64,000 nucleotides of DNA from a phage. Positions 8,756 through 13,654 of this stretch are shown piece by piece (position 1 is the first letter of the stretch; each line of letters starts with the position of its first letter). Location of the stretch: sequence record PZ154896.1; one strand, written 5' to 3'. Below the pieces are notes generated by a model that did no database searches, was not told the DNA's origin, and was given only the letters and a program-made list of their open reading frames with translations. The position numbers were made by a program, and so were the translations under genes.

Positions 8756-10324
8756 ATGACTACTATCAAAACTAAAGCTCAGCTCGTAGACAAATGGAAA
8801 GAACTGCTGGAAGGTGAAGGCCTGCCGGAAATCGCTAATAGCAAGCAGGCTATTATCGCTAAAATCTTCGAAAACCAGGAAAAAGATTTCGAAGTATCCC
8901 CTGAATATAAAGACGAGAAAATCGCTCAGGCATTTGGTTCTTTCTTGACCGAAGCTGAAATTGGTGGGGACCATGGTTATAATGCTCAGAACATCGCAGC
9001 AGGTCAAACCTCTGGTGCAGTAACCCAAATTGGGCCGGCAGTTATGGGTATGGTTCGTCGTGCTATTCCTAATCTGATCGCTTTTGATATTTGTGGTGTT
9101 CAGCCTATGAACAGCCCTACCGGTCAGGTATTTGCTCTCCGTGCAGTATATGGTAAAGACCCTATCGCTGCTGACGCTAAAGAAGCTTTCCATCCGATGT
9201 ATGCTCCAGACGCGATGTTCTCTGGTCAGGGTGCTGCTAAGAAATTCCCAGCTCTGGCTGCTAGCACACAAACCGTTGTAGGTGATATCTATACTCACTT
9301 CTTCCAGGACACTGGTACTGTGTATCTACAAGCTTCCGCTGTAGTAACAATTGATGCTGGTGCTACCGATGCAACTAAATTAGATGCTGAAATTAAGAAA
9401 CAAATGGAAGCTGGTGCACTGGTAGAAATCGCTGAAGGTATGGCTACTTCTATCGCTGAACTTCAGGAAGGCTTCAATGGTTCTACCGACAACCCGTGGA
9501 ATGAAATGGGCTTCCGTATCGACAAACAAGTTATTGAAGCTAAATCTCGTCAGCTGAAAGCAGCTTACTCCATCGAATTGGCACAAGACCTCCGTGCAGT
9601 ACACGGTATGGATGCTGATGCTGAACTGAGCGGTATTCTTGCTACTGAAATTATGCTGGAAATCAACCGTGAAGTTGTTGACTGGATTAACTACTCCGCT
9701 CAGGTTGGTAAATCTGGTATGACTAATATCGTTGGTTCTAAAGCTGGTGTATTTGACTTCCAGGACCCGATTGATATCCGTGGTGCTCGTTGGGCCGGTG
9801 AAAGCTTTAAAGCTCTGTTGTTCCAGATTGATAAAGAAGCAGTTGAAATTGCTCGTCAAACCGGTCGTGGTGAAGGTAACTTCATTATCGCTTCCCGTAA
9901 CGTAGTTAACGTACTGGCTTCAGTTGATACTGGTATTTCTTACGCTGCACAGGGTCTGGCTTCTGGTTTTAATACCGACACTACTAAATCTGTATTTGCC
10001 GGTGTACTTGGTGGTAAATACCGCGTATATATCGACCAGTATGCTAAACAGGATTACTTCACCGTTGGTTACAAAGGCGCTAACGAAATGGATGCAGGTA
10101 TTTACTATGCTCCTTACGTTGCACTTACCCCACTGCGTGGTTCCGATCCTAAGAACTTCCAGCCGGTAATGGGCTTTAAAACTCGTTACGGTATCGGTGT
10201 CAACCCGTTTGCTGAAAGTTCCCTGCAGGCTCCAGGTGCTCGCATCCAGTCCGGTATGCCGTCTATCCTGAACAGCCTTGGTAAGAACGCTTACTTTAGA
10301 CGCGTCTACGTTAAAGGAATTTAA
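8756..10324 (+). CDS. 23: major capsid protein
   Basis: 522 aa vs 521 in T4; strongly biased codon usage typical of a highly expressed gene. Confidence 0.97.
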   Translation: MTTIKTKAQLVDKWKELLEGEGLPEIANSKQAIIAKIFENQEKDFEVSPEYKDEKIAQAFGSFLTEAEIGGDHGYNAQNIAAGQTSGAVTQIGPAVMGMVRRAIPNLIAFDICGVQPMNSPTGQVFALRAVYGKDPIAADAKEAFHPMYAPDAMFSGQGAAKKFPALAASTQTVVGDIYTHFFQDTGTVYLQASAVVTIDAGATDATKLDAEIKKQMEAGALVEIAEGMATSIAELQEGFNGSTDNPWNEMGFRIDKQVIEAKSRQLKAAYSIELAQDLRAVHGMDADAELSGILATEIMLEINREVVDWINYSAQVGKSGMTNIVGSKAGVFDFQDPIDIRGARWAGESFKALLFQIDKEAVEIARQTGRGEGNFIIASRNVVNVLASVDTGISYAAQGLASGFNTDTTKSVFAGVLGGKYRVYIDQYAKQDYFTVGYKGANEMDAGIYYAPYVALTPLRGSDPKNFQPVMGFKTRYGIGVNPFAESSLQAPGARIQSGMPSILNSLGKNAYFRRVYVKGI

Positions 10325-10352
10325 TGCTTTAACGTTAAAATACATAACCTTA

Positions 10353-10372
10353 TGGGAGACTTCGGTCTCCCA
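10353..10372. terminator. bidirectional UUCG-tetraloop terminator between gene 23 and the convergent antisense gene
   Basis: TGGGAGAC-TTCG-GTCTCCCA followed by TTCTTGTTT. Confidence 0.65.
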
Positions 10373-10386
10373 TTCTTGTTTCTATA

Positions 10387-10653
10387 CTATGCAATCTTAA
10401 CTCGGCGGTTGATGATATCACGGAAGTCAATACGATTTTCTTGGATTTTCAGCCAGTTACCAGATTTGTCTTTGGTATGGGTAGAATATTCACCGTTCCA
10501 CCAGAAGTCGGTTTCATAAGCCAAGGCTTCGTATTTCTTAACCAATGCATTAACTGCATTACCGTTAGGATTGGTACCAAATTTTTCTACCAGAGCTTTG
10601 ATGTCTTTGTCAAGGTTAGAAAGTGTGGTACGGATAAAGTTTAATTTGTTCAT
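10387..10653 (-). CDS. hypothetical protein, antisense to the head gene cluster
   Basis: 88 aa from second ATG, which has SD GAGGAGA; the first ATG of the track ORF (10668) has no SD; own early-type promoter upstream and hairpin terminator downstream. Confidence 0.55.
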   Translation of the reverse strand: MNKLNFIRTTLSNLDKDIKALVEKFGTNPNGNAVNALVKKYEALAYETDFWWNGEYSTHTKDKSGNWLKIQENRIDFRDIINRRVKIA

Positions 10654-10682
10654 TTTTAATCTCCTCATGTTTTGATAGGTCT

Positions 10683-10712
10683 ATAGTAACACAACGCTTT
10701 TTGTGTGTAAAC
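10683..10712 (-). promoter_or_regulatory. early sigma70-type promoter (GTTTAC-N18-TACTAT) for the antisense 88-aa gene
   Basis: -35 GTTTAC and -10 TACTATAG on - strand. Confidence 0.5.
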
Positions 10713-10718
10713 CACTTT

Positions 10719-10726
10719 TATAAATA
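10719..10726 (+). promoter_or_regulatory. late promoter TATAAATA for gene 24
   Basis: exact motif about 30 nt before ATG. Confidence 0.6.
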
Positions 10727-10756
10727 AAATTATATTCTCAATAAGGAAAAAATGCA

Positions 10757-12040
10757 ATGAGTAAAATCCAAAAATTATTGCGTGAATCTACAACGTCTAC
10801 TAGCAACTCAATTGGTCGCCCAAATCTCGTTGCTTTGACTCGCGCTACGACTAAATTAATATATTCTGACATTGTAGCAACACAAAGAACTAATCAACCT
10901 GTTGCTGCTTTTTATGGTATCAAATATCTTAACCCAGATAACGAATTCACATTTAAAACTGGCGCTACTTATGCAGGCGAAGTTGGATATGTAGACCGAG
11001 AAAAAATTACTGAGCTCACAGAAGAATCAAAAGTCACACTAAATAAAGGCGATTTTTTCAAATATAATAATATCGTCTATAAAGTGTTAGAAGATACACC
11101 GTTTGCAGATATTCAAGAAAGTGATCTAGAATTAGCTCTTCAGATTGCAATCGTTCATTTAAAGGTACGGTTATTTTCAGATGCAGCGGTAACAAGCAAA
11201 TTTGAAAGCTCGGGTAGCGAAATTTCTGATGCAAGATTCCAGATTAATAAATGGCAAACTTCAGTCAAATCTCGTAAACTTAAAACTGGCCTCACGGTTG
11301 AATTAGCGCAAGATTTGGAAGCGAATGGATTTGATGCCCCTAACTTCTTAGAAGATTTGCTTGCTACTGAAATGGCTGATGAAATTAATAAAGATATTCT
11401 TCAGTCTTTAATTACTGTATCGAAACGTTATAAAGTTACTGGAATTACTGACACTGGATTTATTGACTTGAGCTATGCATCCGCTCCAGAAGCAGGTCGT
11501 TCATTATATCGAATGGTGTGTGAAATGGTATCACACATTCAAAAAGAGACAACTTATACTGCAACGTTTTGTGTAGCCTCAGCTCGTGCAGCTGCTATTC
11601 TTGCTGCTTCCGGTTGGTTAAAACATAAGCCAGAAGATGACAAGTATCTTTCACAAAATGCTTATGGATTCTTGGCAAATGGATTACCTCTTTACTGCGA
11701 TACCAACAGCCCATTAGATTATGTTATTGTGGGTGTTGTAGAAAATCTCGGCGAAAAAGAAATTGTAGGGTCCATCTTTTATGCTCCATACACTGAAGGA
11801 GTAGATTTAGATGACCCAGAACATGTTGGTGCATTTAAAGTTGTAGTTGATCCGGAAAGCTTGCAACCGTCTATCGGATTATTGGTTAGATATGCTTTAT
11901 CAGCAAATCCTTACACAGTAGCAAAAGATGAAAAAGAAGCGAGAATAATTGATGGCGGGGACATGGATAAAATGGCAGGACGTTCAGACTTGTCTGTTTT
12001 ACTCGGTGTTAAACTACCAAAAATTATCATTGATGAATAA
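10757..12040 (+). CDS. 24: capsid vertex protein
   Basis: 427 aa as in T4 gp24; late promoter upstream. Confidence 0.93.
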   Translation: MSKIQKLLRESTTSTSNSIGRPNLVALTRATTKLIYSDIVATQRTNQPVAAFYGIKYLNPDNEFTFKTGATYAGEVGYVDREKITELTEESKVTLNKGDFFKYNNIVYKVLEDTPFADIQESDLELALQIAIVHLKVRLFSDAAVTSKFESSGSEISDARFQINKWQTSVKSRKLKTGLTVELAQDLEANGFDAPNFLEDLLATEMADEINKDILQSLITVSKRYKVTGITDTGFIDLSYASAPEAGRSLYRMVCEMVSHIQKETTYTATFCVASARAAAILAASGWLKHKPEDDKYLSQNAYGFLANGLPLYCDTNSPLDYVIVGVVENLGEKEIVGSIFYAPYTEGVDLDDPEHVGAFKVVVDPESLQPSIGLLVRYALSANPYTVAKDEKEARIIDGGDMDKMAGRSDLSVLLGVKLPKIIIDE

Positions 12041-13451: not shown

Positions 13452-13654
13452 TTCTTCACCTTTCTGTTAATCAAACGTTTACGGTATACAACTTTTTCTT
13501 TTGCTTTAAACTTTGACCGAGCTGTCTCGGCTTTAGTCCATAGTAATCCAACTTCTTTAGGTTGTAAACCGATTTTTTGAGCAATTTCTACGAATGAAAA
13601 TCCCGCCTCATGTAATGTATAAACTTCAACTTCAACTCTCATAATCAATCCCAT
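13448..13654 (-). CDS. hypothetical protein (position of T4 24.3)
   Basis: 68 aa ORF; overlapping stop/start with downstream gene. Confidence 0.5.
   Translation of the reverse strand: MGLIMRVEVEVYTLHEAGFSFVEIAQKIGLQPKEVGLLWTKAETARSKFKAKEKVVYRKRLINRKVKK

Follow-up and report, generated by a model that had tools for sequence, protein, structure and literature searches.

Features of the gap between genes 23 and 24

The window considered here is a stretch of 64,000 nucleotides of phage DNA (sequence record PZ154896.1), and the element in question is a small open reading frame (ORF) on the minus strand between two late genes of the plus strand, gene 23, encoding the major capsid protein (8756..10324), and gene 24, encoding the capsid vertex protein (10757..12040). 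The gap between the two capsid genes measures 432 bp, and the ORF list places one minus-strand frame inside it. Read from its first ATG, this frame spans 10387-10668 and encodes 93 amino acids; read from its second, it spans 10387-10653, including the stop codon, and encodes 88. The window phage is T4-like and belongs to the genus Mosigvirus, with 99.4% identity to Escherichia phage vB_EcoM_SQ17 over 481 bases around the ORF. Together with its signals, the ORF very probably constitutes a genuine early accessory gene cassette. The gene is already known as an annotated hypothetical protein, and the cassette is an ordinary accessory one, not a discovery.

On the minus strand, a Shine-Dalgarno sequence, GAGGAGA (10660..10666), lies 6 nt 5' of the start codon at 10653 and overlaps a non-functional upstream ATG at 10666-10668. 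It is preceded by a predicted T4-type early (sigma-70) promoter of the form GTTTAC-N18-TACTAT (10683..10712), whose -35 side is adjoined by the plus-strand late promoter of gene 24, TATAAATA (10719..10726). At the other end of the gap, folding energy reveals a 9-bp GC-rich hairpin on both strands (10352..10373), between the stop codons of gene 23 and of the ORF. This layout agrees with the initial annotation, which had described an opposite-strand ORF between genes 23 and 24 with a strong ribosome site on its second ATG, a GTTTAC-N18 early-type promoter and a back-to-back arrangement with the gene 24 late promoter. Beyond gene 24 follows rnlB, again on the minus strand.

A conserved protein-coding gene

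The coding status of the ORF is supported by its place in the ORF list, a profile match, substitution ratios and a structural model. A tblastn search detects the protein in 131 phage records, in 130 of them at a coverage of at least 80%. The ratio of nonsynonymous to synonymous substitutions (dN/dS, Nei-Gojobori) ranges from 0.05 to 0.12 when only pairs with unsaturated dS are considered; between the window and JS98, for example, dS is 0.33 and dN 0.032. The ORF is more than a chance frame because it combines homologues in this many records with such low ratios, and the comparisons argue for a genuine protein-coding gene under purifying selection. A plus-strand ORF of 67 codons with a TTG start (10441-10644) overlaps the gene; it is unannotated, and the low dN/dS values belong to the minus-strand reading, so it was discarded.

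All Tevenvirinae examples inspected have the gene in this slot, antisense to genes 23 and 24. These comprise SQ17, KAW3E185 and AV112 of Mosigvirus, the last with a divergent allele; JS98, VR5 and Bp7 of Dhakavirus; VR7 and SP18 of Gaprivervirus; and two metagenomic T4-like contigs. Both the place and the sequence of the ORF are thus conserved in three Tevenvirinae genera, a pattern whose absence would have spoken against the initial annotation. That annotation regarded the gene as unrecognized, which does not hold: more than 100 genomes list it as a hypothetical protein, and it makes up the family phrog_6003, the profile of which is matched with an E-value of 2.8e-49 (residues 6-93 of the 93-residue reading against profile positions 1-88 of 90). 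The identical 88-residue protein is annotated in MX01, JS10, AnYang, KIT01 and SQ17. The phrog_6003 proteins, including JS98 orf173 and VR7ORF190c, share family, slot, strand, promoter and hairpin with the window ORF and show no substantive difference from it, so that the window copy is an ordinary member.

Predicted early promoter, leader and start codon

The predicted promoter consists of a -35 element, GTTTAC, at 10707-10712, an 18-nt spacer and a TG-extended -10 element, TACTAT, at 10683-10688, which would place the transcription start near 10676. Upstream of the -35 element lies the AT-rich sequence TTTATTTATAAAAG, completing the layout of an early unit (GTTTAC, 18-nt spacer, TAnnnT and an AT-rich upstream region). 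The late promoter, located 30 nt before the gene 24 ATG, directly abuts the -35 side, and its TATAAATA doubles as the AT-rich upstream region of the early promoter. The spacing agrees with that of T4 early promoters, in which GTTTAC occupies -36 to -31 and the -10 box -12 to -7 (Nolan et al. 2006, PMC1524935). For RB69, the same work predicted the homologous early promoter as Pe:109605 on the minus strand and the late one as Pl:109573 on the plus strand (PMC1524935 supplement). The consensus box for MotA, TGCTTtA, lies 11-13 nt upstream of the -10 box (PMC1524935). A MotA-dependent middle promoter was considered for the ORF and rejected, as the box-like TGGTTTA is 19 nt from TACTAT. The promoter spacer of the ORF contains a 6-bp inverted repeat, ACACAA/TTGTGT.

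The same pattern recurs throughout the window. GTTTAC-N16-19-TAnnnT occurs at 15 sites where 4.2 would be expected; no shuffle out of 100 contains as many as 15, and all but one of these sites lie on the minus strand. A minus-strand ORF follows 11 of them; in eight of these 11 the ATG is 27-31 nt past the -10 box, and at least four carry a ACATGAGGA(A/G)A leader. The second ATG of the ORF, at +29 nt from the -10 box and behind the leader ACATGAGGAGA, fits the early-unit pattern exactly. The first ATG is embedded in a CATGAGGA context that is common to at least four other early units of the window. The 88-residue start at 10653 is taken as the real one because the first ATG belongs to this stereotyped ribosome-site context, and the 93-residue start was rejected on the same ground; public annotations, such as that of SQ17, place the start at the same second ATG. 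When the upstream regions of eight phages are aligned, GTTTAC, TATAAATA and the start codon show no variation and the ribosome-site leader is conserved, whereas the promoter spacer is variable.

The shared hairpin

The hairpin at the downstream end of the ORF has predicted folding energies of -15.5 and -17.9 kcal/mol on the two strands, with z-scores of about -3.5 on either. On the plus strand, it combines a UUCG loop with a U-rich tail and is the intrinsic terminator of gene 23. On the minus strand, it has a CGAA loop without a U-tract behind it and amounts to a stable 3' hairpin. As the ORF strand lacks a U-tract, termination of the ORF transcript at this point is presumed rather than evident. 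The description of the hairpin as a tetraloop terminator shared by both genes therefore stands insofar as the structure is common to both, but the UUCG loop and the U-rich tail serve gene 23 only. Compensatory changes preserve the stem in VR7 and SP18 (GGGACC...GGTCCC), and a search of Rfam with both strands gave no match near threshold.

States of the slot and relation to segD

As had been stated for this gap, T4 carries the homing endonuclease gene segD at the same position and on the same strand as the window ORF, with the same kind of hairpin downstream. The ORF is absent from T4, and directly before segD, where the homologous promoter is expected, stands ATTTAC-N18-TATTAT (NC_000866 107253-107282, minus strand; L007 2754-2783). 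The T4 locus thus resembles the window in gap, antisense orientation, promoter position and hairpin, and differs in that its cargo is unrelated and that the window lacks an endonuclease gene. In RB14, a Tequatrovirus that carries no segD, the gap measures 82 bp and contains only the hairpin and the late promoter (L019 2624-2705), with neither an early promoter nor a gene; it looks like an empty state of the slot.

The view that the ORF is an alternative occupant to segD is not borne out, since close relatives carry both genes in tandem. KAW3E185 (copy at L002 2584-3243), JK45, F2, AV109 and others encode a 219-residue GIY-YIG protein that is 58% identical to T4 SegD, and the same arrangement is found in AV114/115/116, LF82-x, ATK47/48 and mobillu. 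This SegD orthologue is inserted exactly between the ORF stop codon and the hairpin. Its ATG is 4 nt past the ORF stop and lacks a separate ribosome site, which suggests that its translation is coupled to that of the ORF. The 88-residue protein itself shows no GIY-YIG domain or SegD similarity, with no Pfam hit and an hhalign probability of 0.4% against the KAW3E185 SegD orthologue, and it was accordingly rejected as a degenerate endonuclease fragment.

The slot therefore exists in four states: empty, promoter with segD, promoter with the ORF, and promoter with the ORF and segD. The early promoter is present only together with cargo and travels with it. Judging from their similar TTAAAAATGAA and GTAAAATATGAA start contexts, the T4 arrangement could have arisen from the ORF-segD tandem by deletion between the two. 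No promoter for segD could be identified according to a review (Edgell et al. 2010, PMC2988022); the ATTTAC-N18-TATTAT sequence may be the missing one, and the four states hint at where T4 segD is transcribed from. T4 segD is classed as an early RNA and a middle protein, the protein having been detected by mass spectrometry (PMC9697503 supplement). This early RNA behind the homologous promoter is the sole experimental support, and an indirect one, for early activity at this promoter position.

The states of the slot also bear on the idea that antisense transcription alone matters, the protein being irrelevant and the unit interfering either with read-through from gene 23 or with the late promoter of gene 24. 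Such interference would suit the back-to-back early and late promoters with their common AT-rich region and the convergence with gene 23 transcription at the shared hairpin. However, RB14 manages with its 82-bp gap and no early promoter, the frame is under strong amino-acid selection (dN/dS of approximately 0.1), and alleles that are only 32-41% identical still share a confidently predicted fold. An antisense role on its own is accordingly extremely unlikely.

Exchange, distribution and dispensability

Sliding identity in a three-way alignment delimits an exchanged cassette of ORF, leader and promoter at approximately 10375..10750. Compared with AV112, also of Mosigvirus, the window shows 97-100% identity over gene 23 as far as the hairpin and once more beyond about 10750, into gene 24, but only about 45% between about 10375 and about 10750. 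Compared with JS98, of Dhakavirus, the relationship is reversed: the cassette is about 95% identical, with its coding part and leader (about 10352-10690) at 80-100%, mostly 93-100%, whereas the flanks are only 45-90% identical. Two alleles with 32% protein identity exist inside Mosigvirus. Since identity is high in the flanks and switches inside the cassette, the whole unit, hairpin to promoter, has been exchanged in one piece. On these alignments, the unit of about 370 bp behaves as an exchangeable module that has been swapped between genera. One breakpoint of the mosaic coincides with the shared hairpin, and the other is close to the late promoter and ribosome site of gene 24.

This mobility invites the alternative that the ORF is a landing pad or expression platform for SegD, supplying it with a promoter or translational coupling or being spread by co-conversion. 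The position of the SegD orthologue 4 nt past the ORF stop without a ribosome site, the homologous promoter used by T4 segD and the transfer of the cassette between Mosigvirus and Dhakavirus would all suit this alternative, as would the company the endonuclease keeps: among the records inspected, SegD in the slot accompanies the JS98-type allele, in both genera. Against it, the window, SQ17, JS98, VR5, Bp7, VR7, SP18 and AV112 carry the ORF without an endonuclease while purifying selection persists, homologues in rV5-like phages have no adjoining endonuclease, and the protein is dissimilar to SegD. T4 SegD reportedly does not home, as the title of a 2018 study by Sokolov has it, which also counts against this alternative. 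A platform for SegD is consequently a highly unlikely explanation of the gene.

The distribution of the gene is patchy. Homologues of gp24 were counted in 1384 phage records, compared with 131 for the ORF. The RB69 copy contains two frameshifts and is annotated as RB69ORF189c (29 amino acids) and RB69ORF188c (41 amino acids). Its fragments (NC_004928 109291-109531; L018 292-532) represent an RB69-type allele, split by a +1 and a -1 frameshift relative to AV112; the split copy is either a pseudogene or the product of sequencing errors in the 2003 record. Truncated versions of the family occur in mogra and 310Ecol104PP. The gene is dispensable because it is absent from T4 and RB14 and frameshifted in RB69. 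Taken together, its presence in 131 of 1384 records, alleles of 32% identity, the RB69 frameshifts and the gene arrays of rV5-like phages suggest an accessory pattern resembling that of an arms race.

Outside the Tevenvirinae, Acinetobacter phage ABPH49 (classified in Vequintavirinae) and one metagenomic contig carry homologues with 34-41% identity, the copy of the contig being most similar to that of ABPH49 (L014 4001-4264 and L004 3001-3267). Both lie within arrays of small genes on the same strand. Their neighbors in these arrays include DUF7222, Phage_T7_0_6 and Phage_g100 proteins, and GTG is the start codon of the ABPH49 copy. An exhaustive HMMER search across 1.84 billion representatives returned no more than nine hits, two of them repeat artefacts. 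These two long proteins, P0025 and P0026, were dismissed as matching through repeats only (of the SNSNGNQ type in P0025). Two database entries, P0018 (104 amino acids) and P0023 (160 amino acids), consist of family fragments joined to unrelated sequence and are probably assembly or gene-calling chimeras. A 90-residue member, P0019 (ENA/JGI contig k123_278436, 173 kb), is named 'NADPH-dependent curcumin reductase CurA' in one source; the name is evidently a mis-annotation, given that genes 23 and 24 of a T4-like contig flank the gene.

The cassette may be compared with mobile units described in other phages. ORFan cassettes flanked by PeSLs, elements that combine an early promoter with a stem-loop, are known from the T4-type phages RB49 and phi1 (Arbiol et al. 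2010, PMC2839356; see also Comeau et al. 2014, PMC4122927). The window unit resembles these in that an orphan gene has its own early promoter and stem-loop, lies between conserved genes that are left undisturbed, and is present, absent or replaced among close relatives. The commonest class of PeSL has an inverted repeat in the promoter spacer, as does the window promoter. In contrast, the window unit has a promoter element on one side only, its other boundary being the gene 23 terminator hairpin, which has no promoter, so that it is not flanked by PeSL repeats on both sides. In addition, the PeSLs of RB49 have a polyG/polyC stem where the window spacer has an AT-rich stem of 6 bp, and the window unit is located inside the core virion module rather than in a hyperplastic region. 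The fit to the PeSL class is thus partial. The unit also resembles a moron in the sense of Hendrix, an autonomous insert of promoter, gene and terminator: it has its own promoter and hairpin, is an insert in a conserved module and is absent from RB14 and T4.

The slot is also bordered by variation in gene 24. Two tandem gene 24 paralogues stand beside it in Dhakavirus, Gaprivervirus and two metagenomic relatives (L005 1-2395, L008 1-1399, L009, L010, L012 1337-3901 and L015 1338-3897), compared with one copy in the window, T4 and RB69.

Properties of the protein

The predicted protein has a mass of 10.3 kDa, an isoelectric point (pI) of 9.5 and a grand average of hydropathy of -0.71, and contains no cysteine, signal peptide or hydrophobic span. 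In the family, 18 of 19 members have a pI of 9.2-10.1 and a net charge of +3 to +8, and most lack cysteine. Residues M1, K3, F6, N30-G31-N32, A45 and Q71 are invariant, and L14, L21 and N35 nearly so. An AlphaFold2 model built from the 19-sequence alignment reaches a mean predicted local distance difference test score of 93.7 and a predicted template modeling score of 0.79. In the model, helices at residues 3-25 and 31-48 are followed by a beta hairpin (52-61/67-71) and a third helix (77-87). An independent model of the ABPH49 homologue in BFVD superposes on that of the window protein with a TM score of 0.90. What the gene encodes is a small protein, basic and soluble, that forms a fold family by itself.

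Remote homology searches and structure prediction, which the initial annotation had proposed, thus yielded a confident model and no homologue or fold match beyond the family itself. Foldseek found no match in the PDB below an E-value of 3, and a sequence profile search of the PDB gave best E-values of 0.1 or worse, to designed helical proteins. Pfam returned only DUF5380, at sub-threshold E-values of 0.075-0.12 that involve near-identical members only, and NCBIfam and PADLOC gave no meaningful match. The fold and sequence relatives of the protein are confined to its own small family. The earlier statement that the protein has no recognizable motifs is consequently correct for Pfam, NCBIfam and PADLOC, but overlooks phrog_6003.

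The position of the gene raises the question of a role in head assembly, as a chaperone, a scaffold accessory or a packaged internal protein. In Tevenvirinae the gene strictly keeps its place between the two capsid genes, and L21-V22-E23 resembles a site of the gp21 protease. However, LxE is not conserved in the family and falls in the middle of helix 1 in the model; the idea of an internal capsid protein with an N-terminal targeting leader that ends in a gp21 site (L/I-x-E) was rejected, P0010 and P0017 reading QLNAES and QFRAEF at this position. Furthermore, the gene is on the opposite strand behind an early-type and not a late promoter, T4 and RB14 build the same head without it, the RB69 copy is frameshifted, and the 8-kb neighborhoods inspected around the rV5-like homologues contain no capsid gene. 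Both this and the antisense explanation are disfavored by the early promoter, by the lack of the gene in T4 and RB14 and by the strong amino-acid selection, and a part in head assembly can be given next to no credence.

Proposed function

The best explanation of these observations, and one that is somewhat more likely than not, is that the locus is a self-contained accessory early-gene cassette lodged between late genes 23 and 24, whose product would interact stoichiometrically with a host component. According to this proposal, host sigma-70 RNA polymerase would transcribe the gene in the first minutes of infection, from about 10676, and translation would initiate at the second ATG. The RNA would end, or be stabilized, at the hairpin that also terminates gene 23. 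The takeover by late transcription would then stop expression, and read-through from gene 23 would from that time be antisense to the gene. The protein would bind a host protein or nucleic acid, in a stoichiometric manner, as a host-takeover or counter-defense factor.

A binding role is proposed because the protein is small and without catalytic motifs, its presence is patchy, its alleles diverge deeply within near-identical flanks, and the rV5-like homologues stand in arrays of small early genes. The T-even phages have several small early host-takeover or counter-defense proteins, such as AsiA, Arn, Dmd, TifA and Alc. The window gene shares with these a product of about 10 kDa, an early-type promoter, dispensability, patchy occurrence and fast divergence; it differs from them in that no sequence or structural similarity of the window protein to any solved structure was found. 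The specific assignment as a binder or counter-defense factor is a tentative one, and the probabilities lean against it.

Several points weigh against this proposal. No homology or fold match indicates a target or an activity, and the role in binding or counter-defense draws only on analogy and on the distribution pattern. A literature search by gene names, PHROG identifier and protein accessions recovered no paper, and no transcript, protein or phenotype data for the gene in any phage; a Mosigvirus transcriptome was likewise not found, and the HIDEN-SEQ essentiality preprint mentions neither T-even phages nor segD. Termination of the RNA at the hairpin on the ORF strand is uncertain. Finally, the consistently basic charge is as compatible with binding to nucleic acids as with binding to proteins.

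The last point leads to the alternative of a small basic nucleic-acid-binding regulator that acts on host or phage transcription or on RNA, rather than an inhibitor of protein-protein type. The charge of 18 of the 19 members, the invariant polar residues K3, N30-G31-N32 and Q71, with N35 nearly so, and the modeled helical core with its beta hairpin would all accord with such a regulator. It is unlikely, although of the alternatives to the host-interacting cassette it is the one given most weight.

A bolder extension of the proposed cassette is that the protein founds an undescribed fold family of early counter-defense or host-takeover factors, the allele split reflecting an arms race and the cassette moving partly via SegD homing. 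If true, the cassette would move among T-even genera and into rV5-like phages, hitch-hiking partly on SegD. Such a scenario is decidedly improbable.

The weight of the case is limited, as it adds one more conserved hypothetical early gene of T4-like phages that is already present in public annotations. Its value lies in providing a clean natural case of a promoter-to-terminator module swapped between genera inside a rigid capsid gene block. In addition, a confidently folded, family-restricted small protein is a reasonable candidate for counter-defense and host-takeover screens.

Other predicted early promoters of the window

Besides the promoter of the ORF, with its first -35 base at 10712, early promoters on the minus strand have their first -35 base at 13569, 25770, 32305, 32752, 36407, 38533, 39939, 41123, 47842 and 51133. 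Their common form is GTTTAC-N17-19-TA(C/T)(T/A)AT, and an ACATGAGGAAA leader often precedes the ATG. The spacers between the -35 and -10 elements contain covarying inverted repeats, for instance CCACAA/TTGTGG and ACTCT/AGAGT, a feature reminiscent of PeSL elements. These spacer stems are short and AT-rich, and are not obviously kept in the homologous promoters of JS98, VR7 and AV112. Across the 11 early promoters of the window, the best stem has a mean of 4.36, compared with 2.90 in shuffled spacers (reached in 0 of 2000) and with 3.41 when spacer halves are cross-paired (reached in 25 of 5000 pairings).

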